Assembly (NCBI GenBank): GCA_965285935.1
Contig: OZ260666.1
Span: 3,162,001 to 3,226,000, forward strand
From: Ophelia neglecta
Taxonomy: Eukaryota
Length of the DNA: 64,000 nucleotides
Direction of reading: 5' to 3'
The notes beneath the pieces are model-generated. The model saw only the letters and a list, made by a program, of their open reading frames with translations, was not told where the DNA came from and ran no database searches. This document shows, piece after piece, positions 16,021-62,559 of the stretch. How positions within the stretch are numbered: position 1 is the stretch's first letter; every line of letters starts with the position of its first letter. The position numbers and the translations under genes are program-made.

Positions 16021-16236
16021 AGAATTTACTGCATATCATAAATAACGAGAGAGAGAGAAAGTTTACTTTCAAATGAAAGATGGGACGGCAGACAATCAGA
16101 AGGTTTATTCGTTTTTATGTAGTGGAAAAGAGGTTGGTGTGTCTTCCACCGGCTTTCTTTTGATGTTTTTGTCATTGGTAATAGTATATTGATACAAACA
16201 TATTTTTAGGTCTCGGTGAATTTAAGCTGGCCTATG

Positions 16237-27500: not shown

Positions 27501-27849
27501 CAATTGGAGGGTGAGTTTAAGGCCATTATTTGACCGGCTAGTATAGTGAAGTGTTTCCGCGAGCTCTCATTATCCTGCCTGACATCCCCATTTGTCAGAC
27601 TATTCCACTGACTAAATCAAGCGTCCAATATCCTTCAAACTTCTTTACTTTTGCGTTAAAACTATTCTTTCACAATAATCGAAACTTCCTAGATGAATTA
27701 ATTAATGTTTCTTCATTTTCTAATTCGTGTCTTAACCACCAGAGGCCAGCGAGGGACAGCCTAGCACAGTCTTACCTACAGAAGTTCGATATTCATTTGT
27801 TTGGGTACCACGACCTCCGCCTTGTGTGCAGAAAGCGACCCAAAAATGA
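24598..27849 (+). CDS. IgSF type-I membrane receptor, paralog C (~431 aa), ITIM-bearing
   Basis: Exons: 24598-24670 (signal peptide MGSELIVLLLCLCHVADVMTAPAS), 25227-25526 (V-like), 25978-26220 (Ig2), 26660-26764 (TM), 27043-27510 (Cys/His, CRQKSGCHHEPI x3), 27743-27849 (EASEGQPSTVLPTEVRYSFVWVPRPPPCVQKATQK*). Confidence 0.85.
24655..25051 (+). repeat. 22-bp minisatellite spanning the exon 1/intron 1 junction of C (~18 copies)
   Basis: Unit ACCGCACCAGCTAGTG|GTAAGT, degenerating toward the 3' end. Confidence 0.9.
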
Positions 27850-31882: not shown

Positions 31883-32261
31883 CTAGAATTGGCTACATTA
31901 TCATGTAGATAACAGAGAGAGTGCGACTGGCCTTGTCAATGTATAGATGGAAAGGCACACAACTAGAGATATGGATTACTTGTTAATTGGTGGAAAAGAT
32001 GTGGGTGTATGTTATCAACCCACTATTTCCTTCCAGAATTTTCACATTTGGACACGATATTAAAAGTGCATATACACCTTTAGCTTCCGCGGGTCATAGG
32101 CCTACATTTACATGGACTTTCAAGCAATATGACTACTCGCTGAGCGCATATTATTCCTTGTGTAGGGTGCCGTATATTTGTGTGATTAACAAGTGTATTG
32201 ATAAACAAACAGCTGACTAATGCCCTGTTTTTAGGTGCCAGTGAAAATAAGCTTGCATGGG

Positions 32262-34896
32262 ATGGAGTCAAAGCTGACCGTACTACTAGTCTGTCTGTGT
32301 AAGATAACAGATGTTATGACCGCGCCACCTAGCGGTAAGTACCAGAATTTACATTGTGACGTATGTAGATTTCTTAGCTTTAATAACTTTATGATGGGTC
32401 AAGAAGTATACACCAAGTCTCATTCATTCATCATAACTGGCCGCTTTTACAGTAACGGCGTTTTCCTAATCTTATTCACCCTGGAAGGAGGATTGTATGC
32501 ATAGAATGATAAACATAGAAAGCCTTTCTTCCAGCTTCTTCAGTCACAGTCACTCGAGTGAGTGTTGGTGAAGAGGCCACCTTGTGGTGGAATCTTCCTG
32601 AGACAAATAGCAGAGAGCCACTCAAATGTTTTGATAAGAACGAGATCAACACATTTAATATTGTGAACGGGAATGTGGTATTAAGAAATAATAGTAAATA
32701 CAGTCGTGAGCGTCTCTACGTAAAGATAATTGAAACCGGCCTAGAGATGACCTTCAAAAATGTCACGAGAAATGACGCTGGCCTCTATTACTGTCGTCGT
32801 ACTAACTATAGTAAAAGCAATACACTTTTTGTCTGGGGTAAGTTCCCTTTCCTATTCGCTCGGCCCTAAAAGGTGTAGATTAGATGTTATTTCTTCTTGA
32901 CGAAGTGTCTCATATATGTAGTTATAACTATATTACAGTCGCTTAGGCAATGCATAGATTGTCATGTTTCAGTGCAGATAAACTCTTAAAGTAGTATCTC
33001 ATGCATTAAATATCTAAGCTCCATAGTTTTTGAATTTTTTTCCACAAGGGGAAAGGTATAGCAACGTGGATAGCACTAATTGTCCAACTTCGAACATATT
33101 TCATTATGTTTATAGCAATTCATTAATTTACGAATGATTCGTCGGATTTTAATATTGGATATACTTAATTAAATGAACTACAGGTTGATCTTTCTTGTAC
33201 TTGCCCTAAAGCAGTAAATAGGTCTAGGTAATATAGATGCGTTACCATATATATCGTCTTCTTGAGTCATACCAAGCAGCACACGTTATTACTACTAATC
33301 GCCCTCGCTGCATTCATTTGAATAATTACATATTCAGATTATTTGCAGGAAAACCATCTCCAGCCCAAATAGATGCAAAAGGTTTTAAGTTGATGTGTAA
33401 CGTCACTTCAACCTCTTTGCCAGAAGACGTTCGACCTCCGATGACATATACTTGGTTGCGAGATGGCGCTGTTATCGGAAATACCACAAACCAATCTAGC
33501 TTTATGATAGCATTACACAGCACTATGAACCCGTTCCATAAATACTCCTGTCTAGGGAGAGAGGCTGGCTCTACACTAGCGTCAGACTCAAGTAAGCAAC
33601 GCACACTAGTAGTACTAACCAACGTAGCTTCTAAAACCGATGGAAATTCCCATTGCATGTTTTTGCACCGAACGTCGGTGAACTAATACGCGCATGTCCA
33701 GTTTAATCGGCTATCCATATGTATGATCGTCCCAAGCCAGAGTGAGGTCCTATCCTCAGCGCTCTGGCCCTCTCATCTTGTAGCGTCTGAAATAAAATGT
33801 TGGCTTAAGACGGGCCTATCTACTACTCTCTCTCTCCCGTCACTTCAATTTGAATTTGGTGTTTTTTTGCAATTACTATCAACTAATATTTGATTTGAAT
33901 ATCATGTTTTCAGGTGGTTTTGTACGTCTTCCTGTCACTCTGGGACTACCGGGAATCACGGGATTTGGTGTCATAATATCCGCAGTACTCCTTATCATAC
34001 TGGTCTGCTATCGACGTACGTGTCTTTTATCTTGAAAGAGAATTCCGCGCCATCGTGTATTGTACTTTCTGAGCGCATATTCCCCGATCGAACAGAACAA
34101 AATGACCTGATTTCTCCTCCGTGTCATAAAATCTGAAACATTTCTTGCGCTAGCAAATAATTACAACTTAAATTTGATCTAGGATCAAAACAAAGAAATG
34201 AACCTGCGTCAACCCAAACGACTTCAATTGTTGTCACAGACGAACACGGTCGTTCCAGACCAGGTTGTCTTCACGAGCAAAGAAACTGTCAAGAGCACAG
34301 CTGTCCTCACGAACGTATGTGTCGTCAGGCGTCATGCTGCTGTCACGAACAACGTTGCCGTCATGAGCAGCGCTGTTGTCACGTGTCAAGCGGCAATCAC
34401 GTGCATAGATGTCGTCACGAACCACTCTGCCGTCTACAGCCAAGCCGCAATCAGGAACCATCGTGTGGTCACCAGCCATCCGGCCGTCAGGTAGATAACG
34501 TTGAAGACTACGACACGACCATGGTAGAGAACATCATGTTTGACCCTCGAATGGACGGTGAGCCGATATCTATTAAATTCCCCTTTCATAAATTAATATT
34601 CATCAAGAATTTCTAATATCCTACAACATATTTTCATAGTAGAGATATTTCGTTTTGACCACCGCCTTTTTCTTTTAATATTATATATTGTATGTTTATT
34701 ATATTTTATAAATTTCCTTATTCAGAGTAAGAATTCCAGAATTTTGTGATATGATGTTATCCTGTTAGCAACGCGCTGGTTTGAGTTTGAAATGTTTGTT
34801 TTCCTACTAGAGAGCGGTGAATACGGATTGTCCAGTAGGTTCAGCTATATCGCGGCCGGGTATTCTGAGGTTCGGTTGCCAGTACGTCCGCTTTAA
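32262..34896 (+). CDS. IgSF type-I membrane receptor, paralog D (~393 aa)
   Basis: Exons: 32262-32334 (signal peptide), 32535-32837 (V-like), 33349-33591 (Ig2), 33914-34015 (TM), 34183-34557 (Cys/His-rich), 34811-34896 (ESGEYGLSSRFSYIAAGYSEVRLPVRPL*). Closest to A. Confidence 0.85.
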
Positions 34897-39982: not shown

Positions 39983-42900
39983 ATGACATATAATATATCA
40001 AAGACACCGGTGATCCCCGCAGTCTTATGCTTGTTTATACTGCCACTCCCATATATCGCCGCCTCGTCAAAAAGCGAAGGTAGGTTCACTGTTATCAATT
40101 TTCACTCGTAACATACGAATATTTGTTTCCTGATAAGCCTTGGGGGGGGGGGGGGCAATAATACATAAAACTATATTACTGGAATAAATTCAATACAAAA
40201 CAAATGTGTTGGCTTATCCTACATTGCCTATTTATCCCTTAGGGTGATTAGGCAAAAAGAAAATCACAACGATTTTGGCTTTCACTGTCTAACATTCCGT
40301 TTGCTGGCACAATGCGCAGGTCATCCCTGACTACAGATAACCGACAGATCCAGTGGACGTTCTCTTTTTAATATAACGCTGTGCGGTGCAATTGTTTCCT
40401 TTTGATCCTCATTCTTAACATGTTCATGGTCTATTTAAATTTCCAGTATGGCTCCAGCGTCCCGGCCAAGTGTACGCTTGTGTTGGGTACACTGCCAAAC
40501 TACTCTGGAACTACAACCACAGCTTGGGAGAGTTTGATTCAGTATACTTTCACAAGATTCGCCCAGATTGGAGGTTCCTGGGTGGTAAGAACAAGAACGG
40601 CGCGCTATTGGTTGATATGCCTAGGGCTAACCTGGTTGAAGGGAGCACTTATGGGCTGTCGTTGACGGGAATAGTGATGGAAGACAGCGGAATATATGAA
40701 ATAGAAGTTTACCTGCAGCGCCCTTCCAAGGTGATTCACAACCAAGCAGAACTAATCGTGCTTATCCCATCAGGTACAGCCAAAATTTAAAATTTCGTAA
40801 CGGCTTACAAACTTAACACGATCAGGTTATTATTATTGTTGTATATGTAGATATAAACATGCACTGTACATATGCCTTTGTGTCTTTCAGCATGCCCCGA
40901 TCGACACCGATTTCAGCAGCCAGTCATCACAATAAGAGAGGCAATAGGCGGGTCGGGCAATGTAATACACATATATAATAACACACTGGAGGTGTCCCGG
41001 CCAGTGAATGTCAGCCTCATTGTTGCCATACCAACAGCCGACTCGCCTGTTACATGTACTATAACCCTGGAGGGAGTCCACATCCATACCTGCCAAGGGG
41101 GGTCAGACAATGTGGTTGAATGCGAGAAGAAATTCGCTCTAGGTCAAGGTCAACATCAGATAATAACCCTAAACCTGACCTTCATAGCCTACGAACCCAG
41201 CATTACAACACTCCATGTGTACACCAAACCAGGTATGCGGTCTTCATTGAAGATAATAATTTTGTTATGACCAAGTCGAGAACTCACCGGGTCACCCATG
41301 TTATTATTGACTGGGCGAGTGGCATGATAATCCGACGGCCATCCAATCTCCTTAAAACTACCACACCCTTGTAATATCATCTTGACTATATCAATGATTT
41401 TGCATTGACTGACATACTCTTGCCAATGAGTGAAACAAAGTTAAATGAGTATGCGCGTTCACAATGACCCCTACCTCGGCCTCTTATAGCTTATAGTTCA
41501 GCCTTACCAATGAACGAAGCCTATCACACAGCATTATTAAGCGCAATATGAGTATGAGGATAGGGTATTAAAACCAATCAAGATCAAAGGTTTTACCAAC
41601 TATAGAGATATGTCTATGGGCAAGATAGAATTTGAGTCTAACCATGATATTGTTATGTCCATTAACGATCACAAGGTGTCAAATCAAGCCATAATTAAAC
41701 ATTCATTTTAAATAGTCCGCTATTTGTTGGCATATGCGGCTTTTAATACAAGCTAGGCTTTTGCCCGGCATGTTTTGTTATTTTTTTCGCATCTTTTAAA
41801 ATAACCTATTTTTTATAATCACATGTCAGTCGCCCCAGATGGCCCTAGATATGACCAAGCGTCAACACAACACCTGGATACGGATTCCTCAGTATCAACA
41901 CCCACCACGGTGCTCTTATGGTCTAGCACTGTGACCCAGCAAGAGAATACTACTTCAGCCAACGAGACAGCTTATTGGTTGCACACCAGAGGGCGCAGTA
42001 TGACGACAGGGGAGGTGTCAGTTATCGCGATCTGTGCCATAGCGCCCCTTTCAATTCTGGGTGTGACCGTAGTTATGTACGTTATATGGAATCGTCACAG
42101 AACGGAAAAAGGACATCAGTCTAAGGTAATTTTGCCTCCACTAGCGCAATAGTTAAGTTTGAGTTTCACAGCTGTGGCTTTATTTGCAGTCACGCTAATA
42201 AAACATAACATGAAAATTCCAAGTATTTTTAAATCAAACGTCCGCTTTTATTTTTCGGTTATCAAACTGATTTTCAATCACTGGTCTAACCAAAACTAGT
42301 CAGCATCTACTTTTTCCATAAATAACATAAATACTGTGACCTAGTCCTAGGTGAGAAGTGTTAACGACCTGTCCGATCGTTAACAAAGAGCAGACACAAT
42401 AAGTTTATCGCTATGGGCAGTCATTTTGAAGTTGTCTTGTTTACTGTAAACCAAGAAATATTCACTAACAGGAAAACTTTCCTGATCAGATTTCACCATA
42501 TATTGCTTACATGCAATTTTGTGACTGAATAATTCTAAGTAGTGACTTCCTGTGAAACAAGCTACAGAAGGAGATAGCAAAGAGGCAACTTCCACGAGCA
42601 GGAAATATTTGTTATGATCGCGAAATTTTTATGGTCGCGATATTTTTGTGATTTTAAAAACCCCCATAGCACGAAACATGGACCATGAAAGTACCATCTT
42701 AGACACTTTATGTGATATTGGACATCCTTTATCCGTTTAAACTTAATGCAATTATATTTCAGCAGGACGCCGATTATGGAGATGGGGTAAATTGTCGACA
42801 CCCAGATAAAAACGCCCTATCTATGTCTACTACTGAAACTACTGAGGAGCCTGGCAGCCCACCACAAGCCCCGCCACGTCACTCGGCTCGAACAAACACG

Positions 42901-45900
42901 TCTGAGAGAAATCCGCCTGACGTCAACGTAACAAATGACAGTATACAACCAGCCCACTTGTCTTGTGACAACGAGACACCACCGACAGTCCCAGTTCTCA
43001 GCAACGATACCCCTGAACAATCAAATGTAGAAATAGACAGGGAAACCCCTGACTTATTAGTGAGTAATTCATTTTTAAATATTCAACCAATAAACAGATT
43101 AATTGTAGTTGCTAGCGAACACATGCAATACTTCAATTAACTTCTCGTGGTAACGTGTGCATTAACAATATTGGGATGCGATGTTGGTGTAATGGTGGGA
43201 CGATAAACAAAGAGCAGACACAATAAGTTTATCGCAATGGCCAGTCATTTTGAAGTTGTCTCGTTTACTGTAAACCAAGAAATATTCACTAACAGGAAAA
43301 CTTTCCTGATCAGATTTCACCATATATCGCTTAAATGCAATTTTGTGACTGAATAATTCTAAGTAGTGAATTCCTGTGAAACATAAGGTACAGAAGGAGA
43401 AAGCAATGAGGCAACTTCCACGAGCAGGTAATATTTGTTATGATCGCAAAATTTACATGGTCGCGATAATTTTGTGATTTTTCAATCACTGGTCTAACCA
43501 AAACTAGTCAGCATCTACTTTTTCCATAAATAACATAAATACTGTGACCTAGTCCTAGGTGAGAAGTGTTAACGACCTGTCCGATCGTAAACAAAGAGCA
43601 GACACAATAAGTTTATCGCTATGGGCAGTCATTTTGAAGTTGTCTTGTTTACTGTTAACCAAGAAATATTCACTAACAGGAAAACTTTCCTGATCAGATT
43701 TCACCATATATTGCTTACATGCAATTTGGGACTGAATAATTCTAAGTAGTGACTTCCTGTGAAACAAGCTACAGAAGGAGATAGCAAAGAGGCAACTTCC
43801 ACGAGCAGGAAATATTTGTTATGATCGCGAAATTTTCATGGTCGCGATATTTTTGTGATTTAAAAAACCCCCATAGCACGAAACATGGACAATGAAAGTA
43901 CCATCTTAGACAGTTTATGTGATATTGGACATCCTTTATCCGTTTAAACTTAATGCAATTATATTTCAGCAGGACGCCGATTATGGAGATGGGGTAAATT
44001 GTCGACACCCAGATAAAAACGCCCTATCTATGTCTACTACTGAAACTACTGAAGAGCCTGGCAGCCCACCACATGCCCCGCCACGTCACTCGCCTCGAAC
44101 AAACACGTCTGAGAGAAATCCGCCTGAGGTCAACGTAACAAATGACAGTATACAACCAGCCCACTTGTCTTGTGACAACGAGACACCACCGACAGTCCCA
44201 CTTCTCAGCAACGATACCACTGAACAATCGAATGTAGAAATAGACAGGGAAACCCCTGACTTATTAGTGAGAAATTCATTTTTAAATATTCAACCAATAA
44301 ACAGATTAATTGTAGTTGCTAGCGAACACATGCATTACTTCATTTAACTTCTCGTGGTAACGTGTGCATTAACAATATTGGGATGCGATGTTGGTGTAAT
44401 GGTGGGACGATAAACAAAGAGCAGACACAATAAGTTTATCGCTATGGGCAGTCATTTTGAAGTTGTCTCGTTTACTGTAAACCAAGAAATATTCACTAAC
44501 TGGACAACTTTCCTGATCAGATTTCACCATATATCGCTTACATGCAATTTTGTGACTGAATAATTCTAAGTAGTGACTTCCTGTGAAACATAAGCTACAG
44601 AAGGAGAAAGCAATAAGGCAACTTCCACGAGCAGGAAATATTTGTTATGATCGCAAAATTTACATGGTCGCGATAGTTTTGTGATTTTAAAAATGCCCAT
44701 AGCACGAAACGTGGACCATGAAAGTACCATCTTAGATAGTTTATGTGATATTGGACATCCTTTATCCCTTTAAACTTAATGCAATTATATTTCAGCAAGA
44801 CGCCGATTATGGAGATGGGGTAAATTGTCGACACCCAGATAAAAACGCCCTATCTATGTCTACTACTGAAACTACTGAGGAGCCTGGCAGCCCACCACAA
44901 GCCCCGCCACGTCACTCGGCTCGAACAAACACGTCTGAGAGAAATCCGCTTGAAGTCAACGTAGCAAGTGACAGAATACAGCCAGCCCACTTGTCTTATG
45001 AAAACGAGACACCACCGACAGTCCCACTTCTCAGCAACGATACCCCTGAACAATCAAATGTAGAAATAGACAGGGAAACCCCTGACTTATTAGTGAGTAA
45101 TTCATTTTTAAATATTCAACCAATAAACAGATTAATTGTAGTTGCTAGCGAACACATGCATTACTTCATTTAACTTCTCGTGGTAACGTGTGCATTAACA
45201 ATATTGGGATGCGATGTTGGTGTAATGGTGGGACGATAAACAAAGAGCAGACACAATAAGTTTATCGCTATGGGCAGTCATTTTGAAGTTGTCTCGTTTA
45301 CTGTAAACCAAGAAATATTCATTAACAGGAAAACTTTCCTGATTAGATTTCACCATATATCGCTTACATGCAATTTTGTGACTGAATAATTCTAAGTAGT
45401 GACTTCCTGTGAAACATAAGCTACAGAAGGAGATAGCAAAGAGGCAACTTCCACGAGCAGGAAATATTTGTTATGATTGCAAAATTTTCATGGTCGCGAT
45501 ATTTTTATGATTTTAAAAACGCCCATAGCACGAAACATGGACCATGAAAGTACCATCTTAGACATTTTATGTGATATTGGACATCCTTTATCCGTTTAAA
45601 CTTAATGCAATTATATTTCAGCAGGACGCCGATGATGGACAAGGGGTAAATTGTCGACACCCAGATGAGGACGTCATATCTATGTCTACTACTGAAGAGC
45701 CTGGCAGCCCACCACATGCCCGGCCACGTCACTCGGCTCGAACAAACACGTCTGAGAGAAATCCGCCTGAGGTCAACGTAACAAAAGACAGTATACAACC
45801 AGCCCACTTGTCTTGTGACAACGAGACACCACCGACAGTCCCACTTCTCAGCAACGATACCCCGGAACAATCAAACGTAGAAATAGACAGGGAAACCCCT

Positions 45901-48060
45901 GACTTGTTAGTGAGTAATTCATTTTTAAATATTCAATCAATAAACAGATTAATTGTAGTTGCTAGCGAACACATGCATTACTTCATTTAACTTCTCGTGG
46001 TAACGCGTGCATTAACAATATTGGGATGCGATATTGGTGTAATGGTGGGACGATGAACGAACAGCTGCATAGAATTTGGAAAAATGTCTTGGATGAAAAT
46101 TAATAATTACTAAATTAAGAATAAAGAATGTATCGGCAGGACGCTGCCAGCTGACCAACACATTAAATTCAAACAAAAGACTAGTATAAAAGGTGCAGGC
46201 AACACCAGAGCTCGTGTTATGGTTATGAAAAACGAACGTAAGCGTGAAATTCCACCATTCTTTCGGTCCCTGATAAATATAACGTATTAGAATGCATCTA
46301 AAAAAAGTTAGCAAGACAAATGTGAAGCCAGCCCTTTAACAACAAAGTGAGCACCATTAAGATGCAACTACAGTAAGTGAACCAATTTGACAAATGTAGA
46401 AGATATTGAGCACCTTTCCTTTCGATATTGAGGGACACCTGTTTGGCGGGACAGTACCATAAACATCGTCAGGAGTTTATGCACTGTTGTTAAACCCTGC
46501 GTGTCTATATTAGATCAAAAGGTCATAATTATTATTGAGTCTGTCTATTTTCTACAGGTAAAAGAATTTGCAAGACAACCAGAACATGGTATAGGCGAAC
46601 AACACCCAACAGAAACGACAACTCCTTCCAATTCCAGCCTGAAAGATTATCCGTCCCTGTTTGATTCCCTGTCAAAAGGTCATCTGACTCCAACAGATAC
46701 CGTAACGGGACTGATACAGCAGAAGTCCTTGCCAGAACATTCTTCGTACGGGTCAGATACAGAGGCAGGGGATCATCCGTCCCAATTAGATAACGAACTG
46801 GGAAAAGGAAGTGCGCTCCATTTAGGTTCAGAGTCAGGAAGTCACACGTCTCAGCCATCTTGTTTGCCTCCGTCGAGTTCCGCATCAGAAGGCCGTTCGT
46901 CCCATTTGAAATCCTTGAAGGGGGGTCGAACATATCTGTCAAATTCCGTGCGAGGAGAATGTACATCTCAGCCGGCTTTAAGACAAGAAGATCGCCCGAA
47001 CAAGCCAGTTTCTAGGCAAAAACTTCGTCCGGAAGATCGTCCGTCACAGTCAGATTCAGGAAATGGAGATCATCAGTCACTGACGGGGTCAGGATCAGGG
47101 GATCGTCCGTCACAGCCAGGGTCAGTAGCAGGGGACCGTGCGTCACAGCCAGGTTTGGGACCAGGGAACCGTGCATCACAAACATGTTTAGGACCAAAAG
47201 ATCGTTCGTTCAATCCAAGTTCAGTGGCAGAATATCGTCAGACAAAACCAGCTACAAGCCAACGAGTCGCGACACACCTAGGGTCAGCAACAGGAGACTG
47301 TCCGTCACCAACAGGGTCAGGATTAGGCGATAATCAGTCACGGGAAGGTTTCAGACAGGGAGAGCTTGCGCCACAGCCAGGGTTAGAACAAGGAGATTGC
47401 CCGTCACAGACAGGATCAAGCCCAGGGGATGCAACGTCACAGCCAGGTTCAGGACCAGGAGATCATGCTTCACAGCCTGGGTCAGCACAAGGAGATACTT
47501 CGTCAAAACAAGGTCCGAGATTAGGAAATCAATCCTCACAGCCAGGTTTAGGAACAGGAAATCGTTCGTCACAGCCAGAGTCAGGGCTATACGTCTGTCC
47601 TTCAGAGACAAGCGCAGGACCAGGAGAGAATCCTGTGTCAAGGTCAGGTTTAGAACAAAAAACTAGTCCGCCACAGCAACCGTCAGGACTAGAAGATCTT
47701 CGCTCCAGGCCGTTTGCAGGACAAGAAGTCCGCCAGCCACAGCCAGTTTCAGGATCAGGCGGCCGTCCGTCTATGTCGGATTCTTATCCCGGAAAGGATC
47801 CATCCCAATCGAAATCCAAATCAGAAGAATGTCCATTTGTACGATCGGTTACTACGAAGGATGCAGCCATGGGCGGCATATTAGCACACCGCATCTCATT
47901 CATTACCAAGAAGCCTCCAGGAGCCCCTAATCAAGATAAGGTTATTGAAATGCTACCACAAGACCCTTCTTCGACTGACACGGATATTCCCACCACTATC
48001 AATACTTCTCCAACAGCCCCAGGTAAAACAGAAGGTTTGTTAACGGTTAGTAAAGAATAA
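39983..48060 (+). CDS. Ig-like type-I membrane protein F (up to ~1247 aa) with a very long repetitive cytoplasmic region
   Basis: Exons: 39983-40079 (signal peptide MTYNISKTPVIPAVLCLFILPLPYIAASSKSE), 40447-40773 (V-like lacking the B/F cysteines: KLLWNY...DSGIYEIEV), 40891-41232 (beta-rich domain), 41830-42125 (S/T stalk and TM VSVIAICAIAPLSILGVTVVMYVIW), four repeat exons 42763-43059, 43970-44266, 44796-45092, 45622-45909, and 46558-48060 (G/S/P/Q 11-aa repeats). Splice phases are compatible throughout. Confidence 0.7.
42270..46055 (+). repeat. Tandem array of ~826-bp exon+intron units (4 exon copies plus one partial intron copy)
   Basis: Exon starts at 42763, 43970, 44796 and 45622 (spacings 1207, 826, 826); the introns are near-identical. 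Confidence 0.95.
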
Positions 48061-48115
48061 GTAAGCTTTAGGGAACAAGACCCTTTGATCACGGACACGA
48101 CCACACAACGCCCAG

Positions 48116-48737
48116 ATGAGCATTAACCCGGGAGATGAACTGAAAGTATTCAACCATGAAGTCTTGTCCCTAGCTCACCTTGCCTGCATACATGGCGAAA
48201 TCCCAGCCATTGGAAAAAAAACTGTAGGAATACAGGTACCGACCTTAACGCTATGGAAACGCTTGGTTACACCCCGCTGGATTTGGCAGCAACCCACGGA
48301 CATTCAAACGTAGTGGAATATCTTATGAAAATAGGAGCTAATGTGGATCTCTCCTCGACAGACGGATTTACTCCATTACACTTGGCGCCGAGTGAAGGTC
48401 ATCAAGAGGTCGTTGATGTGCTTTGTCTGGCGGGAGCTAATCTTTATACAGAAAGTCAAAGATTTACTCCCATCGGAATTGCCTCGGCGAAGGGACACCT
48501 ACAGGCTTAATCAAAAAAGGAGCTGATTTGAATCGTGCTGGTATTGGGGGTAATACCCCTTTACAGCTTGTTACCAAGGAAGGTCTTGGAGAGGTTGTTT
48601 GCCTTTTACACAATTCGGGTGCCGATATGATTAAACTCAACCAGAACAAAAGCTCAGCTTTGGACATCGCTTTAGAAAGGAGTCATAATGACATTTTTGA
48701 ATTTCTCTCTGCCAAGGGGGCTGTTGCAAATGTTTAG
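48116..48737 (+). pseudogene. Frameshifted ankyrin-repeat segment (~6 repeats)
   Basis: LAHLACIHGE, GYTPLDLAATHGHSNVVEYLMKIGANVD, GFTPLHLAPSEGHQEVVDVLCLAGAN, FTPIGIASAKGH, GNTPLQLVTKEG..GAD and SALDIALERSH are split across three ORFs in alternating frames (shifts near 48215-48230 and 48507). Confidence 0.8.
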
Positions 48738-49114
48738 GTTTCATGGAATTTACCGGAGAATCTTTCATGATTATGATCATTAGCACAAATATAATATACC
48801 CAATTAAATTGCTCGAGTACAGATAGACTACATTGACAAAATCTTCAATTAACTAAGAAACTACACCATAGAGAGGACCAGAACTTGCATAGCAGCCTTA
48901 TAAGATCCCCAGGAACATCTAGTGTCCGGACTTGAACGGTAAAAGCTGATAATTTTGACAAATTATTAACGCAAATATTTTTGTATAGGCCTTATAACAT
49001 TCCCAACAAGGTTCCACGTGAGTGACTTTCAAACCTGGCCAGTACATACGCACTACAGACTGACCAGGGCCTATACACGTCCCTATTCACAGCTGAAAAA
49101 TCAATAGTGTAGCT

Positions 49115-50197
49115 ATGTCAGTCACCTCTAGGCCTTCAATGGAAGAATGTTTACAAGACAAGAGTCTTTGGCTGAAAGTGGATGCGGAACGCATGCGACG
49201 AATGACAGAACCCCAAATGGCTGAAACTATACTTGAACTAGCAAAACAAGAAGAAGTTTCTGTCTCCCCCGACCATTTTCTTGGTGCCCAATACATTCCA
49301 CCAAGAAAAATATGGATAATTTACCTGGCAGACCGAAATACGCACGCCTTGTTGCTATCTTTGGGGTCAGTCAATGTAGATGGAAGCAACTACTCTATCA
49401 CCGACTTTAGCGAAAAAAAATCTTTTACAACAAGGAGCAAAAATATCAGGATTTCCATTCATGGAATTCCGTTCCATGTCTGTGACGAGGAAATAACCGA
49501 ATGGATTACTCAGTTTGGAACCGTGGTGACACCTGTCCAGAAAGCTTTTGCAAAGCAAAAGCCAGATGACTCAAAGTTCAAGTCCCTTCTTACAGGGAAC
49601 AGGTTTTGTTTTGTCTCAGAAATAACAAATCCTATAGCACGCTACACAAAATACACCCTAGCAGATCCTTGTGACCCCAAAACACTCATCGAGCTGCCGA
49701 TAGTCATCTTCCATAATGGCCAGCCAGTCAACTGCAAATACTGCAAGGGCGACCATGGAGTTGAGGACTGCACAGTGCTTCTGGCAAGAGTAAAATGCTC
49801 TTTGTGTAAAGAGCGAGGCCACAGACCTGAGCAATGCCCAACCAACGTTCAGGAGAAAGAGAAATCGGAAAGTTCGGACAGCAGCGGAAAAAAAAGTGAC
49901 TCTGAACAAGAAACACTGAAATCAGGAGAGTCTTCTTCGGACAAAAACGCTACAAGTACACCAGCAGAAAATGTCAAAGAAAAACCAGAGATCAAAGAAC
50001 AGGACTCTGGGTCAAAAGGAGAGGCTTCGAAAAAGGAAAAAAAAAAGAAAAAAGCAGAACAGCAATCCAAACAATCCAGCGACCAACTGGGTATAGAACA
50101 GTTCATGACAGAAACACCAAATGTGCGACCAAAGCGCAAGAATGTTCTTACCCCGGTTGAAAATGAATCCAAGCAACGAAAAAGTGAAAAGACTTAA
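49115..50197 (+). CDS. LINE ORF1p (gag-like; RRM-like region plus two zinc knuckles)
   Basis: ISIHGIPFHV..FG; CKYCKGDHGVEDC and CSLCKERGHRPEQC; basic low-complexity C-terminus. Confidence 0.9.
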   Translation: MSVTSRPSMEECLQDKSLWLKVDAERMRRMTEPQMAETILELAKQEEVSVSPDHFLGAQYIPPRKIWIIYLADRNTHALLLSLGSVNVDGSNYSITDFSEKKSFTTRSKNIRISIHGIPFHVCDEEITEWITQFGTVVTPVQKAFAKQKPDDSKFKSLLTGNRFCFVSEITNPIARYTKYTLADPCDPKTLIELPIVIFHNGQPVNCKYCKGDHGVEDCTVLLARVKCSLCKERGHRPEQCPTNVQEKEKSESSDSSGKKSDSEQETLKSGESSSDKNATSTPAENVKEKPEIKEQDSGSKGEASKKEKKKKKAEQQSKQSSDQLGIEQFMTETPNVRPKRKNVLTPVENESKQRKSEKT

Positions 50198-50361
50198 ATG
50201 ACTTCAAATCCTATTTATTCAAACACATCTTTCGACGACGAATTTCCGCTACTCCACTATTCAGGGAATAGCTTTATCGATCCTAACAAATTTTGGCTTA
50301 TAGGCCTATACTTATATAATTTTCAACTAGATGTAATATATGTGTAAATTTGAAACTTGTA

Positions 50362-53300
50362 ATGACAAAATTGATTACGGTAAATTGTAGAGGTCTGAAG
50401 CAGAATCTGAAACGAAGAACTATTTTTGAGTATTTTAAACGAAATTACATTGATATAGCTTTACTACAAGAATCCTACATCCAGGAAAGTGACGTAAATA
50501 GATGGAAAATGGAATGGGGAGGTCATATGTTTTATGTACCGGGATCAGCCCATAGCTGTGGTGAAGTTATACTTATTCATAAGAAAGCTAAATGCGAGAG
50601 TTTGAACATTGTAGAAAAAACCTCAAGGATGTTAGCTGTATCCTTTCAACTTGAGGATGAATTCTATATACTGGTTAATTTATATGTTCCAAATAAGCAC
50701 GAAGAAAAAGTTAGCTTTATGAAATTTGTTAAAGGAAAAATAAAAATGTTAGTTCGGAGTTATCCCGAATATTTTATGGTGATAGCTGGGGATTTTAACT
50801 GTTCACTGCAGACAGAATTAGACATATTAGCGGGAAATCCCCACTTAAATAGTGAAATTGCATCTTTTAAGGATATTTTAGAAGACAATAATTTGAAGGA
50901 TATCTGGAGACTTCGGCACCCGGGGGAAAAAAACTTCACCTGGCGCCATAAGTCGTTAAATATTGTACGACGATTAGATTATATATTAGTTAATAATAGG
51001 TTACTAGATAAGATTATATCGGCAGATATAGTAGATGTCCCTCTTGCTGATCATAGAGGGGTATTAATGAAATTGGGTTCCCCCAATAAGGACAGAGGAC
51101 CCTCCTACTGGAAACTGAATAATCAATTGTTACGAGAAAGGGTTTATATCGATAAAATAAATGAAATTATAAAAAGTGTAAATGAAAACTATAAAAATGT
51201 TCGTCCGGATATAAAACTGGAAATTTTAAAGACAAAAGTGAAGTTTTTCTCCTTGGAATATAGTAAGCAGCGCTCAAAACGAAATAAATCTAAATACAAC
51301 AGCCTATCAGAGAAGGTCAAAATAGCTAATGAGAATTTATCAAAGGATCCAACCAATATATTCTTAAAAAATTTATCAAACTCCTGTCAAAAAGAACTTG
51401 AATTACATGAAATTGAATTGACCAAGGGAGCCCAAATTAGATCGAAATATAAATGGATACAAGAAGGGGAAAAAAGTACGAAGTTCTTTCTGAATTTAGA
51501 GAAAGAAAGAGGCATTGAAAAAATAATAACAAAAATTGTAGATGAACAAGGACTCTTATATGAAAATCGAGAACAAATATTGGAGCAAATTTTCCTTTTC
51601 TACCAGAAACTATACTGTAAAGATATACTCTTCAATGAAATCACACTAGACCAATTTATCGCAGACTTACCCTTACCAAAACTTACTCAAGAAGATTTAA
51701 ATTTATGCGAAGGCTTGCTCAGTATGGATGAATGCACAAACGCCCTTAAAAGCATGAAAAACGATTCAAGTCCCGGTATTGACGGGTTAAGTGCTGCGTG
51801 GTACAAAACTTTTTGGTGTAAAATTAAGGTGTTGGTGGTAGAAGCATTAAATTATGCACAAGCTTCCGTATGTATGACCAAGTCCCAAAGAACTAGCATT
51901 ATAATTATCCATCATAAAGGCAAAAAACTGCCCCGAGAAAACTTGACAAATTGGCGACCAATTTCATTAAGTACAACAGATTATAAAATAGCAGCTAAGG
52001 CCATTGCAAATCGGATAAAGAAGGTACTGCCAAATTTAATCAGCCCCGACCAATCCGGTTTCATAAAGGGTCGATCTGCTAGTGACATAATAAGGGCAAT
52101 AAACGATATTATAGAATATACAGACATTAAAAATATTCCTGGCATATTGATAGCCCTCGATTTTCAAAAGGCTTTCGACAGCATTTCAAAGGAATTTATG
52201 TTTAAATGTCTAGAAATTTTCGGTTTTGGACCTTTGTTAGTAAACTGGGTAAAAACATTAAATTATTCAAATAATGCAAAAGTTTGCCATGGCGGATGGT
52301 TTACAAATCCTTTTAAGCTTGAAAGGGGCATGCGGCAGGGATGTCCCCTCTCGCCTTTAATCTTTATACTTGCTTTAGAAATCCTCTCATGTAAAGTGAG
52401 GGAGTCACGAGATATTAAAGGGATACCATTGAAAAATATACATGGTAACTACACCTACACAAAACTCCTTCAATTCGCGGATGACAGCACTGGCTTAGTC
52501 AGTGATGAAGAATCCTTACATAACTATTTTACTCTTATTGACTCTTTCTATATAATCTCCGGTCTGAGACTAAATAAATCAAAAAGTGAGGCTGTCTGGC
52601 TTGGGTGTTGGAAATTCCGGCGAAAACAGATAGGAAATCTGAAATGGCATTTATATCCTGACAACAAAATAAAAATCTTGGGTGTATATTTCAATAACAC
52701 AAGTGGTGCCTCAAATTTGGATGAAAATTTTAATCCGAAAATAGAAAAATGTAAATCTATAATGAAGTCAATGATACAACGAGGTCTGTCTATTCTTGGT
52801 AAAATTCAAGTTGTTAAATCTTTATTATCAAGTCTATTTGTTCATCTTATGCAAAGCATTATTTTTCCCCAACGTATTTTGGATCGTCTTAATAGATTAT
52901 TTTTTAATTTCATTTGGGCAAATAACTACGAGCAAGCTATATCTAACAAAGCTTTAGATAGGGTAGCTCGTCAAACTATTATTAGACAATACAGAGAAGG
53001 TGGGCTTCGTATGATAGATATAAATTTCTTTTATAAACAACTTCTTTTTAAATGGGTCGGTAAGCTTTTATTCAGTGAGACGGCATCATGGAAGGTTATC
53101 CCCTCTGTTTTTTATAATCACTTTGGTAGAGAATATAGCGTATTTAATAGTTATGTCAAATTTAAAAATTTCAGAGGTATGCCAACTGTAAAACCTCGCT
53201 ATTGGTCTCATTTACTGGAATTGTGGCTAGATCAAAAATATATATGTAGGTATAACAAGGTCAATGTTCTCTTTAATAATAGCCACATTGTGTATCATGG

Positions 53301-54066
53301 AAATGTTATATTCATAAAGAGATGGATAGATGCAGGGATAACATATGTACATGATATCTTGGATAGAGGTGTTATATCATACGAGAAGTTGACGGAAGTT
53401 ATTCCAGATTCAACATTAACCAAATGGGAATTTAATATAGCAAGAAATGCCATTGGAAATACAGACGTGTGCGCTTTGAAGGAATGTAGATCCCAGGTGT
53501 TTTTTAATGACCTAACTATATGTGAAAACTTAAAATCAAATTTACTTGGAAATCAGTTCTTGTTATCTCTACCAGATACTGCATCCTCAATATGTAGATA
53601 TTGGACCCGAAAATACTGTTGTCATGAAATTCCACCTGAGATATTAGAACTAGCAAGTAATGTCTGTAAAGAGCCTAGGCTAATTTCCTTGCAGTGGAAA
53701 ATATTGCATGCAGTGTATCCTACTAATATATATTTGCATAAAATTGGGAAGACTGATACGACATTATGTAATATATGCAGTATCGACGAAACGCTAGAAC
53801 ATCTCTTTTTCCATTGTACCAGGTCACAGCACTTATGGAAACTAGTCGCTGAAGATGTATCACGGTTGCTTAAAAAGAGAATTGTACTTACAGAACGTGA
53901 AGTTATATTGGGCTTAAACCCTGATAAAAATAACAAATTAGTAAATTATCTGATTCTTTTGGGAAAGCTAGTTATAGGTAAAAAACGATTTTATGACAGT
54001 CACCCTAATGTATCCATACTCTATGAAAATGAGAAATATTGGAGAAAACTTGAAATTATTGTTTAG
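50362..54066 (+). CDS. LINE ORF2p (APE endonuclease, reverse transcriptase, C-terminal zinc finger)
   Basis: TVNCRGL, LQES, GDFN, RLDY, DHR; WRPISL, DFQKAFD, RQGCPLSP, QFADD; CNIC..ETLEHLFFHC. First ATG at 50362; uninterrupted. Confidence 0.95.
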   Translation: MTKLITVNCRGLKQNLKRRTIFEYFKRNYIDIALLQESYIQESDVNRWKMEWGGHMFYVPGSAHSCGEVILIHKKAKCESLNIVEKTSRMLAVSFQLEDEFYILVNLYVPNKHEEKVSFMKFVKGKIKMLVRSYPEYFMVIAGDFNCSLQTELDILAGNPHLNSEIASFKDILEDNNLKDIWRLRHPGEKNFTWRHKSLNIVRRLDYILVNNRLLDKIISADIVDVPLADHRGVLMKLGSPNKDRGPSYWKLNNQLLRERVYIDKINEIIKSVNENYKNVRPDIKLEILKTKVKFFSLEYSKQRSKRNKSKYNSLSEKVKIANENLSKDPTNIFLKNLSNSCQKELELHEIELTKGAQIRSKYKWIQEGEKSTKFFLNLEKERGIEKIITKIVDEQGLLYENREQILEQIFLFYQKLYCKDILFNEITLDQFIADLPLPKLTQEDLNLCEGLLSMDECTNALKSMKNDSSPGIDGLSAAWYKTFWCKIKVLVVEALNYAQASVCMTKSQRTSIIIIHHKGKKLPRENLTNWRPISLSTTDYKIAAKAIANRIKKVLPNLISPDQSGFIKGRSASDIIRAINDIIEYTDIKNIPGILIALDFQKAFDSISKEFMFKCLEIFGFGPLLVNWVKTLNYSNNAKVCHGGWFTNPFKLERGMRQGCPLSPLIFILALEILSCKVRESRDIKGIPLKNIHGNYTYTKLLQFADDSTGLVSDEESLHNYFTLIDSFYIISGLRLNKSKSEAVWLGCWKFRRKQIGNLKWHLYPDNKIKILGVYFNNTSGASNLDENFNPKIEKCKSIMKSMIQRGLSILGKIQVVKSLLSSLFVHLMQSIIFPQRILDRLNRLFFNFIWANNYEQAISNKALDRVARQTIIRQYREGGLRMIDINFFYKQLLFKWVGKLLFSETASWKVIPSVFYNHFGREYSVFNSYVKFKNFRGMPTVKPRYWSHLLELWLDQKYICRYNKVNVLFNNSHIVYHGNVIFIKRWIDAGITYVHDILDRGVISYEKLTEVIPDSTLTKWEFNIARNAIGNTDVCALKECRSQVFFNDLTICENLKSNLLGNQFLLSLPDTASSICRYWTRKYCCHEIPPEILELASNVCKEPRLISLQWKILHAVYPTNIYLHKIGKTDTTLCNICSIDETLEHLFFHCTRSQHLWKLVAEDVSRLLKKRIVLTEREVILGLNPDKNNKLVNYLILLGKLVIGKKRFYDSHPNVSILYENEKYWRKLEIIV

Positions 54067-54206
54067 AAAATAAAAAAAAATCCCCTGTATTGTTAGTATC
54101 AATTAGATATCGTACATATACCATTCATCCCCTAACCACGTGGGAATGTAGGTATAATTATAGTGCAAAGCGTGGTTAAGAAAAAATGAGAGAAAAAAAT
54201 AAAATC

Positions 54207-54253
<47 letters not shown>

Positions 54254-57399: not shown

Positions 57400-60300
57400 C
57401 CATGTTTTTTACCTCACTACACGCCGCTCAAATGGCGATTTTGGATTGTTTTTCTTCTTCATCGATATGCTTTTCACTTTAATATACATATGCTACACAC
57501 GCACTTCAAAGCATGTACACACATGATACACGATGACTTTAATATTCCCCAGTTCAACACACTACGCGTACTTTTTTAACAACAATTGACATTATTGAGT
57601 ATTGTTTTGATGGTTGTGCGCATGCTCGGTGATGGAAGCTGCCTTTCATTTCAATGAGAATATTATTGAAAATATTACGGATACCAACAGAGAGACAAAG
57701 AAAAGACAAAGACAGGACGCTTCTAATACCAGTGAAACTTCATTCCAGGTTAGGAAAAGGCTTAATTTTAACGACACAGTAATAGAAATGAATCCTGAGC
57801 ACCACACTGACCAAAATGTAAAGGCGGTATTGGCCATTGTGAAAGGTACGCAAGCCACCCTACATGAATACAATAGGCGCGTGACACTCCTTGAACAATG
57901 GTCTGTACAACAGCAACAAATGAATGACCACATACATCGAGCAATCAGTGTTATGGAATACAAACTGCTTGACCTGGAAGCACGCTCACGAAGGCTTAAT
58001 CTTATCTTCCATAACACAAGGGAGGAAGGACACCGAGAAAACACCAGGGATGTGCTGGCATCGTATTTCTCCGTAGATTTGGGCCTTTCTGACGCTCAGG
58101 TAGAAAGCATATTTTATTTAGCGTTCTCACCGTCTAGGGGCATCGAGGGGAAGGGCACGCCCGATCATTGCGTGTTTCCGTGATGAATGGGCTGTCAACA
58201 ATATTCTAGACGCTGCCCGCACAAGACATAAGGAAAAGGAGATTTCAAAAGACCTGCCGAAAGTAATAAGGGATGCTAAAAGTGTCTCCTTCCCAAGATG
58301 CACGAGGCAAGAAGAAGAGGAAATCATGCTGTAATTAGGTTTCCAGCTGCACTCGTGGTGGATTCAGTGGTTGTGATTGACTGCTTTCATGGATTCCGAA
58401 ACACTGGCCAGGCAAATTTCATGGCTACATCAACCCCAATAAGGGAGCTTCCCGAGACAAGTTGGCACCGTGGTCCTTCCGGTGCTGCAGGTGTGGCGGC
58501 ATTTTCTCCTCCGCAGCAGCCATTACAACAGCAGACAATAGGATTTCCGCAAAATGCCTATAGGCCTGTTAATTATTATGGACCATACGACGCATCAATC
58601 CAACAGACGAGACCATGCTATGGGACTCAGCGTCCACAACTACCCTACCAAACCAGTTATAGCAGGGCGGCAAGACCCACAACTGGACCTGTTATGCCAC
58701 CTCCGCTGATTGCTCATCGTGCTCCGGGTATGATCCCGGCCGACCGTCCTGTAACTGCGTCTGTCAACCTAGCGGGCAATCAACAGTTTGCTGCGCCCAG
58801 GCCAAATGCCACATCATCATCAGTAATGAGGAGTACGAGTGAAGGACAAACAGTCCCTGTCTCCACTGGCATACGGACACAGCAGAATGATCTTCTGCAT
58901 GAAACACAGGAGGCGGGTCCTTCGGCTGATGGCGGTACGGGAACAGTCAACCCGCCAGTGGGAGATCAAGGCCTTCCTCCCGACACCGGACAGCCGCGGG
59001 CAGTGTAGCTGCCACAATCAGTAACCGATCTGTCCTTCCTGGTCTGGAATATCAGAGGTCTTGCAACGAAAACTTACTCCAAGATTTTAGATCCCCAGTT
59101 CTTGGAGATTGTGGATCAATCTGACATCTTGTTGTTCACCGAAACATGGAGCAATGATTTGCAAAACCTGGACATTCCCGGATATGACGCAGTTTATAGA
59201 GAAGAACTTAACCCGAGAGCAAAAAGGTTTTCAGGTGGTATTGCCGTTTATTTTCAGTCGCATCTGGCGAAGGGAATAACAATTCTAAAAAAAGTAAAAG
59301 ATTGTATATTATGGTAAAAACTGTCTAAAGTATATTTTGTTGGTGATAAAGACATTTTGATTGCTCTGGTTTATAATGTCCCTCAGGACTCGACTAGAGC
59401 TCCAGACTCACCAAATGTTTTTGCTTTGTTGGAGTCCCATATTGCAGAGTTCGAAAGTGTACAACCAGATACATATGTATATATTGTGACTGGGGACTTT
59501 AACGCCAGAACTGGGGTATTGAATGATTTTATTCGATTCGATAATAATTCTTCTGATCATATACTGCTGCCCGAAGAGTATGCTGATGATTCTACCTTAC
59601 CAAGAACTTCAATGGATGTTACTGTTAATAATTATGGGCACAGGTTACTAGATCTGTGTTGTGCTACCGGCCTCCGTATTGCAAACGGTCGGCTTGGGAA
59701 TGATAAAGATTGTGGTAAATATACATATATAGGTGGAGTCGGAGCAAGTGTTATAGATTATGTACTGTGTAAGCAGTCAGATTTTGCTCTGTTCTCTAGT
59801 TTTTCTGTAGGTGACCCAAATGTTATGAGTGACCATAGCCCTCTTAAATTTGAATTTAAAAAATTGGGTAATAAGCCGGAGAGTAAACCTGCAGTGATGA
59901 GTACTAAATTAGCTTGGAATTCAGAATGTGTAGGTCAATTTAGAGCCTCATTAAATAGTGCTCTCGGTAGTTAAAATCATATAGTTAACTCCAATCATAG
60001 CATTGACATCCAGGTTACTAAATATACAGATAAATTACTTGATGTCGCGCTGCCTCTTCTCGGTAAACAAATCCGGCCACATGCTGTACGAACTACACCA
60101 GTTATTGATACTCCTGCGTGGATGTGCAATAAATGCGAGCTCTTGCGAGATGAATTTCATGAAAAGCTTGATTTATATAGACAGAATAGTATCGAAGATA
60201 TTCGGGCGAATTTGAGATTGGCTAGATCTAAATACTCTAAGCACGCTGATATTTGTAAAAAGAAACATAGCGTAGGTCAAACAAAATCATTGCTAGATGC

Positions 60301-62390
60301 CCGTAAGAATAATGCCAGATTATACTGGAAAATGTTGAAAGGTTCAGCTAGTCGTGTTTACCCAAACATTGAAATGGCTGAATTCTATAATTTCTTCAAA
60401 ACTATTTCTAACCCCCCAAACATTGAAGACTTCGAGATTGCTGATGAATATAACTCATTTGTGCAAGACTATGTAAGAGATGAGTCTATGTTTAGTGAAT
60501 TGGATACGGAGATATCTGTAAGTGAGATTCTGTCAGCGATTTGGCAGCTTAAGGCTGGTAAGGCGGCAGGGCCCGACTTACTGATTAATGAACTATTCAT
60601 TTATGCAGATGAGTTGGTACCGTCGTTGCAGGGGCTCTTTAACAATATCTTGAGTGCTGGTGACTTTCCGTCCTCTTGGACAGATGGTATCATTTTACCC
60701 ATCCATAAGAAGGGCTCTTTACACCAAGCTGAAAACTATCGTGGGATAACGTTACTTAGCGTACTGGCAAAGCTGTTCACTCGCATTCTTAACAATCGCC
60801 TGACTTCTTGGGCAGAGGAGTATGGGGTGTATATCGAAGGTCAGGCAGGCTTCCGTGCTGGCTATGGTACAATAGACAATTTATTTGTTCTGCATGGGCT
60901 TATATCAAATTATTTGAATTCTAAAAAACAATTATACTGCTGCTTTATTGACTTCCGTAAAGCCTTTGATTATGTCAATAGAAATGGTCTATGGTATAAA
61001 CTCATAAAGTCAGGAATTTCTGGCAAGCTTTTTAATGTTATAAAAAGCATGTATTCTTGTGTTAAATCAGCTGTTCGGTCCTTGACTGGGGAAATTAGTG
61101 AGTCGTTCGAATGTTTATTAGGCGTCCGTCAAGGCGAAAGCCTCTCTTCATTTTTATTTTCTATTTACATTAATGATCTTGATCATGAATTATCTAATAG
61201 CCAACAACCCACAGGAATTAGCATTGATTATATTAAGCTCTATATACTTCTGTATGCTGACGATGCCGTCATATTGGCAGATATGACGGAGGGTCTGCAA
61301 TCACGACTGAATACACTAGAAACATATTGTGAAACATGGAAATTGAAGTTAAGCACAGAAAAAACTAAAGTGGTAATTTTTAGAAAAGGGGGTAGGTTAC
61401 CGGGGAATCTGGGGTTCAAGTATAAAACAGCAAAATTAGAAGTAGTCTCGAACTTTTCTTATTTGGGTTTAGTCTTACCAGCGGGCGGCTCTTGGACGGC
61501 AGCCCAGGAGACCCTGGCGAAGCAGGCCACGAAAGCAGTTTTTTGTTTGAAAAAATATACATATAGATATAACATGAGCCCCAAAGACATGTGCTCTTTA
61601 TTTGATAAATTAGTTCTTCCTGTTTTATACTATTCCTCTGAACTATGGGGCTTTCATCGGGGGGTGAATGTAGAGAGGGTTCATCTCAAATTTTTATAAA
61701 AGTATCTTAAACTTAAAAGACAGAACAAAGAATGAAATGGTTTATGGGGAGCTTAATCGGTTTCCTTTACAAATTAATAGGTACCTAAATATAATTAAAT
61801 TGTGGCTTAAACTGATTCAAGTAGGTGGTAATAAGCTAATGCAGAAAGTCTATTGAATGTTATACAGCAGAATACAGCAGGATAATTGGGCCAGTAAAGT
61901 AAAATATCTTCTGTTCAAATACGGTTTCGGAGAAGCTTGGCTGAATCAAGGTGTTGCCGATGTAAAACAATTTATAGTGTTATTTAAACAGAGACTCTTT
62001 GATTGCTATAAGCAAGATTGACATGGGAATATAAACGATTCCTCAAAGTGTATATTTTATCGGTTTGTTCATCCAGACTTTGGCGTTCTGCCTTCTTATA
62101 TGAACTGTGATGTGAGCATCAAGTATAAAAAAACACTGTGCAGATTTAGGTGTCGCGATCATTATTTGTATGTGGAGAGGGGCAGCTGGCAAAGGCCACC
62201 TGTAGAGTTTTCAGAGCGCAAATGTAGTGTATGTGATAAGTTGGACGATGAATACCATTTTGGACTGGAATGTTGTTTATTTTTCGAACTACGTGCCAGA
62301 TATATTCCAAGATACTATGTAGTAAGGCCTAATGTATATAAATTTTTGGAACTGCTTAGATCTGCCAATAGTAAAACTCTAAATAACTTA
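57400..62390 (+). mobile_element. Decayed near-full-length LINE of a different clade (RTE-X-like; clade uncertain)
   Basis: ORF1 remnant (coiled coil, LEARSRRLNLIFH, then P/Q-rich) at 57631-59008 with frameshifts. ORF2 pieces WNIRGL, GDFNAR, IDY, SDH, YRGITL, DFRKAFD, RQGESLS, LYADD and CSVC..DEYHF..C are broken by stops or frameshifts (59315, 59972, 61697 and others). Ends are approximate; no TSD found. Confidence 0.85.
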
Positions 62391-62559
62391 TATCTCTTAA
62401 GGCCAACAGCTCAAATAAGGAGAGTATATTCAAAATTTTCGGTAGCAAATTTGGCCACAAAACAACATACCTAGGTCAAATTCTTTGTAATGCCAAAAGT
62501 TTCTTAACCAACCGACTCTGTCACACTGTATGATTCCTTTGTAAACCCTTATTTAAATT

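Follow-up and report, generated by a model that had tools for sequence, protein, structure and literature searches.

The ankyrin (ANK) repeats of a clustered family of immunoglobulin (Ig)-type receptors were almost certainly lost from one gene, here called gene F, and from 13 other plus-strand copies through one shared insertion of 29-30 bp that carries stop codons. Gene F lies in the window analyzed in this study, a stretch of 64,000 nucleotides on contig C9 (C9:3162001-3226000) of a 762-Mb animal genome. An erythrocruorin-linker match above the Pfam cut-off makes an annelid the likely source. Gene F was read as encoding, in order, a signal peptide, a V-set-like domain (D1), an Ig-like domain (D2), a transmembrane (TM) segment, and a long disordered tail. 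The broken ANK repeats alone are an ordinary gene-family event, and the architecture that they expose is the interesting part.

Exon 1 of gene F (39983..40079, + strand, as for all features of the gene) contains the ATG and the predicted signal peptide, ends at a GT donor in phase 1, and was mapped in 25 of the 26 close copies modelled. It is followed by the exons for D1 (40447..40773), D2 (40891..41232), and a stalk with the predicted TM segment (41830..42125; open, AG/GT, phase 1 to 0), and by four tandem in-frame spacer exons of 285-297 nt each (42763..45909). The last exon begins behind the acceptor TTCTACAG at 46558 in phase 0, and its coding part (46558..48060) specifies a tail of 500 aa, rich in S, P, G, and Q and containing 33-nt repeats, that stays open up to a TAA at 48058-48060. 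All splice sites are AG/GT and in phase, and the model, which sums to 1243 aa, would be spliced into a protein of this length. The signal peptide and the single TM segment were recognized from hydrophobic segments in in-phase exons, and a surface location is predicted. A motif scan of the 898-aa tail found no ITAM, ITIM, or PPxY, and its matches were limited to short, low-information motifs, including four TTEE TRAF2-like ones. A candidate poly(A) signal, ATTAAA (48803..48808), has an identical offset in 13 of 18 copies, where it would be expected to function. Stops in last exons would escape exon-junction-dependent decay, and because the stop of gene F lies in its last exon, the transcript is predicted to escape nonsense-mediated decay. 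Three sequencing runs were found, all from one sample; their intron coverage is as in DNA, and they are therefore uninformative on expression. The spacer exon was duplicated together with its intron as a unit of about 826 bp, and from 0 to 4 copies of it are found among the paralogs. The acceptor AG of the first spacer exon is AA in six plus copies, and skipping the spacer keeps the frame.

A reading of the letters alone, referred to below as the sequence-only reading, had described the stop of the last large exon at 48058-48060 and ANK repeats on the same strand past it. Both were recovered: the exon is open from 46558, and a formerly coding linker with about six ANK repeats (48065..48737; Pfam and alignment), now predicted 3' UTR, continues in three frames up to 48737, with Pfam Ank or Ank_2 matches above cut-offs in two of the three ANK pieces scanned. 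The two breaks named in that reading are real as well, the shift in the A8 run (48214-48221) being net +2 against intact copies and the short deletion measuring 10 bp at 48504 in the paralog alignment. It had overlooked that the stop sits within a 30-bp insertion (48035..48064, defined by alignment to paralogs) with stops in all three frames, and that a 6-bp deletion at 48070 and an 11-bp deletion at 48099 follow. An intron between the stop and the ANK repeats, for which it had seen no convincing candidate, was ruled out, as four paralogs, the intact ones among them, have colinear open coding sequence there. The lesions are not assembly errors, since the same set is present in five copies and a short-read contig, whose sample may be the assembly's own source, spans 48333-48709 with 0 gaps and therefore carries the 10-bp deletion, the one lesion to which this contig extends the read check that had been proposed. 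The suggested analogy with Rel binding by IkB found no support, with no IkB chain in the best 60 of 261 PDB matches to the ANK array. These 60 were DARPins, ankyrin-1/2, NOMPC, TRPA1, and others; ANK similarity is generic.

Just behind gene F, on the + strand, lies a full-length L1-like retrotransposon (48811..54247) with a poly(A) tail and a target-site duplication of about 15 bp, in which ORF1 (366 aa, zinc-knuckle-like) as well as ORF2 (1248 aa) is open. Among 1.05 Mb examined, it was present at the gene F copy only, and it is therefore very recent. A second LINE-type element, fragmented into endonuclease and reverse-transcriptase pieces, is located at 57611-62474. Additionally, a second tandem family is interleaved with that of gene F. 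Its members are small receptors that combine V-set, Ig, and TM parts with a tail of Cys/His-rich repeats (HEQRC-like), found at 4100-6240 on the - strand and at 16230-19250, 24590-27530, and 32250-34620 on the + strand, with weak Pfam matches to V-set and Ig_3.

The 26 close copies, 22 plus and four minus, were modelled in 1.05 Mb of sequence selected around matches in this region. The junction and ANK segment gave 18 near-full matches within C9:3.06-4.00 Mb, and the 29-30 bp insertion at position 48035 of gene F was found in all 14 plus-strand ANK copies and in none of the four inverted copies. Every frame of the insertion contains a stop in the subgroup of five that includes gene F; among the other nine plus-strand ANK copies, stops occur in two frames and the insertion also causes a frameshift. 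The ANK segment is open at the insertion site in the four inverted copies, one of which (3403-) has a nonsense codon of its own within the repeats. In copies 3061- and 3934-, the reading frame runs unbroken from the ATG to the stop behind ANK, with GT-AG sites in phase, and would encode 1089 aa without the spacer exon or about 1185 aa with it. The Ig-Ig-TM-disordered-ANK receptor that the sequence-only reading had predicted thus exists. It had been assigned to the ancestral or other alleles; the form is real, but its intact representatives are also paralogs in the same assembly. Copy 3799- is open but has AAG in place of the first ATG; six codons further along, an in-frame ATG is present. Only two of the 26 close copies are fully intact. 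Eight other plus copies are without any ANK segment: five break off at about positions 48013-48025 of gene F, and three have short last exons (144-150 aa). Four of these eight (3247+, 3369+, 3770+, and 3861+) have lesions in the ectodomain, signal, or TM parts. Ectodomains of the ANK-less copies are about 80-90% identical to those of ANK-bearing receptors. A broken paralog at C9:3256655-3259441 contains about 27 tandem repeats of a 96-bp piece taken from a D2 exon.

D1 was assigned to the V-set-like domains by an ESM Atlas similarity of 0.95 to V-set clusters, by best family matches of which 10 of 10 fell in one clan, and by weak profile matches to JAML and CD2. The V-type motif (W / D-x-G-x-Y) was found in the alignment, with W20, G81, and Y83 invariant. 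The canonical B-F disulfide was absent: C11 is the single invariant Cys, and none of 21 rows has a Cys after the F-strand Y. Domain 1 of CD2 is also without this disulfide. Among the exons of gene F, Pfam returned no match for D1 and no Ig match for D2. The AlphaFold model of D2 is a beta-sandwich (pLDDT 85.5) whose similarity to ICAM-2 (Z 8.7, rmsd 3.0, 95 aligned) is tied with that to sandwiches outside the IgSF (best Z 9.9), as is its similarity to VCAM-1. D2 may accordingly be described as an Ig-like sandwich, the set of which is uncertain.

The wider family, located mostly on C9, comprised at least 135 matches for D1 (150 scored of 171 candidates) and at least 150 for D2 (150 scored of 279). 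ANK exons terminate paralogs with 34-49% D1 identity, and locus L160 on C7 has a V exon, a D2 exon, and then the TM segment and ANK in one exon of 260 aa, so that no splicing need be assumed to connect the two. On this sequence comparison, the ANK tails of distant paralogs and of L160 mark the ANK repeats as ancestral and the insertion as derived, and not the repeats as a stray retrocopy. The opposite history would have ANK come from an unrelated retrocopy or neighbour, with the inverted copies gaining it by a 29-bp deletion; it could appeal to the disordered tail of gene F's clade, for which no homology was detected outside the 26 copies; with no tail homology to distant members, there is no outgroup state for the exact insertion site. 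It is nevertheless scarcely credible and already largely refuted. The sequence-only reading had raised it in the form of homologs that never carry ANK repeats, yet the D1-D2-TM module precedes the ANK segment in 18 of 18 ANK copies, L160 holds TM and ANK in one exon, and the strongest ANK similarity beyond the clade (46-52%) is to the tails of other V-D2 genes, above that to free ANK genes (37-44%).

Gene F had also been called truncated or decaying. Truncated fits better, and decay is confined to the ANK part. The signal peptide, D1, D2, and TM exons are open with AG/GT sites in all 14 cut copies, and the last exon is open up to the insertion in 13 of them. Behind the insertion, 8-11 distinct frame-breaking lesions were found in about 0.7 kb, versus two in the roughly 2.7 kb that precede it, each of them in copy 3995+ (binomial p 1e-4 to 2e-6). 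Nonsynonymous and synonymous (N:S) codon variants in the ANK remnant of the 14 cut copies stood at 99:22, which at a site ratio of 3.3 is neutral or above. In the ectodomain of 13 of the 14 (3120+ was dropped for an in-frame insertion), N:S was 62:40 (Fisher p=0.0006 versus the ANK remnant), the same as in the ectodomain of the inverted copies (37:26; p=0.87). The ANK segment of the inverted copies gave 41:19, which differed from that of the cut copies at p=0.058 only. Pairwise pN/pS was 1.64 in the ANK remnant versus 0.55 in the ectodomain, and a modest 0.63 in the ANK segment of the four inverted copies. The ANK and ectodomain trees disagree, indicating that the copies are mosaic; the variant counts are therefore not independent, and conversion could import constraint from other copies. 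However, the ectodomains of the 20 plus copies analyzed form their own clade (UFBoot 100), and the constraint was therefore not simply copied from the inverted genes. On this pattern, gene F probably still functions as a receptor, though one without ANK, and is not simply a dead gene.

That the cut copies in general are functional is probable, and two other accounts of them were weighed. They may be pseudogenes spread passively by segmental duplication, with only the inverted ANK copies working. A recent block duplication (3676+ and 3720+ are near-identical blocks), the lesions of the four damaged ANK-free copies, by which the cluster does make dead genes, and the conversion allowed by mosaic trees all agree with such a history. 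The L1-like element, which only gene F has and which starts 3 nt past the candidate poly(A) signal, counts against function in F itself. The pseudogene account is unlikely, though, given the complete absence of breaks in the signal peptide, D1, D2, and TM exons of the cut copies against the 8-11 in ANK, and the separate clade of plus-copy ectodomains. Alternatively, the cut copies could be active receptors that are not decoys, with ANK dispensable and a new output through a growing disordered tail. The tail is open for 430-910 codons among the 14 cut copies, the spacer exon was duplicated in frame up to four times, and cut copies outnumber intact ones by 14 to 2; as the tail holds short low-information motifs only and varies freely in length, this account seems quite improbable. 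Under the reading preferred here, that of functional cut copies, gene F would still make a surface receptor that binds ligand without ankyrin signaling. Ligand binding would lead the ANK-bearing receptors to recruit a cytoplasmic partner, and the ANK-less copies, sharing ligands with the few intact copies, would compete for ligand or dimer partners and act as dampening decoys. This decoy role, part of the mechanism judged most likely, is possible and somewhat doubtful. The cluster is a natural experiment, in which near-identical ectodomains with and without ANK are separated by one datable insertion, and such pairs make the role of the tail directly testable.

Across the family, the exons read indicate a tail that varies stepwise, from ANK plus a cGAS-like domain, to ANK only, to no ANK. 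A further domain of about 500 aa is specified by a large open exon at 14 loci, where V and D2 exons precede it in the same orientation. This domain matched Mab-21/cGAS-like proteins in the Atlas at 0.93 and Pfam Mab-21_C below the cut-off. From a model with a pLDDT of only 48.6, the top Foldseek matches were cGAS and MAB21L1 (E 6e-4 to 1e-3) and the best structural match was Sp-cGLR1 (VIA Z 10.6, rmsd 4.7, 278 aligned); a PDB sequence search with the cGAS-like alignment found nothing relevant. An NTase core and helix bundle with a structural match to cGLR/cGAS are thus present in distant members and not in gene F. ANK precedes the domain in 12 of the 14 loci, with more ANK after it in the 12-13 Mb genes, and a TM segment was called by a scan or seen in 11 (the rest being L122, L123, and L126). 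The splice sites read, in five genes, were those of D1 and D2, and the join of the receptor exons to the cGAS-like exon is predicted from exon order. Two V-D2-TM genes, L159 (C9:4.417 Mb) and L161 (C9:12.088 Mb), have a cGAS-like tail without ANK.

Six intermediate paralogs have disordered tails only, in the DNA examined. At loci L129-L131, ANK is retained and the cGAS-like part that follows survives as a broken remnant, which is the same type of event as in gene F, one module earlier. Tail loss is therefore recurrent, including these loci, the five copies that end before ANK, the three with short last exons, and the nonsense codon of 3403-. Within 4 kb behind ANK, a cGAS-like remnant was found in none of 18 copies of gene F's clade.

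The genome search returned 132 matches of 131 scored candidates for the cGAS-like domain, a strong lineage expansion, of which 42 rows were read for the published cGLR catalytic motif, h[QT]GS..[DE]h[DE]h..h[DE]h, with six fragment rows set aside. The acidic pattern [DE]h[DE]h was kept in 0 of the 14 receptor-linked domains and was also absent from nine further domains near family exons or among these genes. In contrast, 13 of 13 apparently free-standing domains (loci without listed D1/D2) have E-h-D-h, where 10 pass the motif pattern and three miss only at the residue before GS. No catalytically intact cGAS-like domain was found behind Ig-TM exons in the 42 rows read of 132, and no D1/D2 match was found upstream of the intact domains in the 18-30 kb scanned for nine of the 13. 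The receptor-linked domain is likely inactive, and might serve as a scaffold or nucleotide binder. Receptor-linked domains occurred at four or more places in a tree of 36 rows (six fragment rows dropped), and the module was perhaps captured more than once, with deep tree support of 8-72.

Single exons of 1,000-5,300 codons that encode ANK and a cGAS-like domain were observed at C9:1.27-2.77 Mb and 15.5-23.3 Mb, on C1, C2, and C12, and at C5:107.4-108.8 Mb. The catalytic motif was intact in 13 of 13 such genes read, and C5 has a concentration of about 45 matches that are more distant. L133/L134 (C9:19.29 Mb) has an ANK-cGAS-like exon with a TM-like exon upstream and no D1/D2 match in the roughly 25 kb up to the next gene; another ectodomain is possible. 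At L196 (C9:20.298 Mb), an intact cGAS-like gene is preceded, at a distance of about 15 kb, by a short frame ending in CPDRKEY, similar to a D2 start and without a D2 profile match, which may be a chance occurrence or a decayed exon.

Word-based homolog searches in other species found none with D1 (among longer proteins), the cGAS-like domain, or the D2 alignment (likewise longer), a result that is weak evidence. A D2 profile search elsewhere returned 26 representatives, of which 13 were read: 10 were single-exon D2-like pieces, all Logan or ENA singletons, and three were spurious repeat proteins. Since D2-like exons occur in assemblies from elsewhere, the receptor family probably extends beyond this genome. 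By analogy with clustered Ig families and cGLRs, the receptors may act in immunity or recognition. Rather more speculatively, an Ig-Ig-TM front end may have captured the ANK-cGLR exon of cytoplasmic sensors and lost its catalytic acids, switching it to nucleotide binding or scaffolding. Serial loss of the tail, the cGAS-like part first and then ANK, would have produced a graded set of signaling receptors and decoys among more than 100 immune genes.

To our knowledge, single-pass receptors with cytoplasmic ANK repeats are rare outside Notch, itself a single-pass receptor with about six such repeats. The family described here differs from Notch in its Ig-type ectodomain and its organization as a multigene tandem family; no EGF, LNR, or RAM-like parts were seen, and Pfam matched neither EGF nor LNR in the gene F exons. 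The vertebrate CEACAM, LILR, and CD300 clusters, shaped by birth and death, combine near-identical ectodomains with different tails. Paired and decoy receptors of this kind resemble the present cluster in having shared-type ectodomains with differing tails side by side. However, in those clusters an ITIM is replaced by an ITAM or a charged TM, whereas the copies studied here either retain or have shed a folded ANK module.

Cyclic GMP-AMP synthase (cGAS)-like receptors are described as cytoplasmic sensors, and the ITPRIP, TMEM102, and MiD49/51 proteins are membrane-anchored, often without catalytic acids. The cGAS-like domain was similar to membrane-anchored Mab-21 proteins (TMEM102 cluster 0.91 in the Atlas; MiD49 Z 7.3), which differ in being single-copy genes without an Ig ectodomain or ANK. 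In the accessible text of PMC2794190, ITPRIP, TMEM102, and MiD49/51 are grouped with Mab-21. The published cGLRs are defined by an intact active site and include ANK-fused members (10.1101/2023.02.22.529553 = PMC9980059). The order of ANK followed by a Mab-21/cGAS fold and the strong lineage expansion are shared with these. In contrast, the module here lies behind Ig-Ig-TM exons with the motif kept nowhere among the 14 loci, and gene F's clade has no cGAS-like remnant. The terms "immunoglobulin", "V-set", and "transmembrane" have no occurrence in six supplement files of the cGLR study (PMC9980059). In Crassostrea gigas, lineage-expanded HEPN-Ig-DED-TRADD-N-Mab-21-TPR proteins combine Ig repeats with a cGAS-like domain in a different domain order, and no TM or ANK is named for them in the accessible text (PMC8195603).

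The Alr proteins of Hydractinia form a large clustered family of single-pass proteins, many of them pseudogenes, in which domain 1 is an atypical V-set, each exon encodes a single domain, and the tails are diverse; they include I-set and Fn3 domains with six invariant Cys and ITAM/ITIM tails (PMC9546547). The present family is comparable in its large clusters, atypical first domain, domain-per-exon structure, varied tails, and many pseudogenes. It differs in having a V domain with one Ig-like domain, tails of ANK or of ANK with a cGAS-like domain, and no ITAM/ITIM in gene F. No report of Ig-TM-ANK or Ig-TM-ANK-cGAS-like receptors was found in the literature searched, the scope of which excluded subscription journals. 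None of these nearest systems combines an Ig-type ectodomain, TM, ANK, and cGAS-like parts, and an Ig-type family with an internal ANK or ANK plus cGAS-fold portion would represent a new build for diversified invertebrate recognition receptors.
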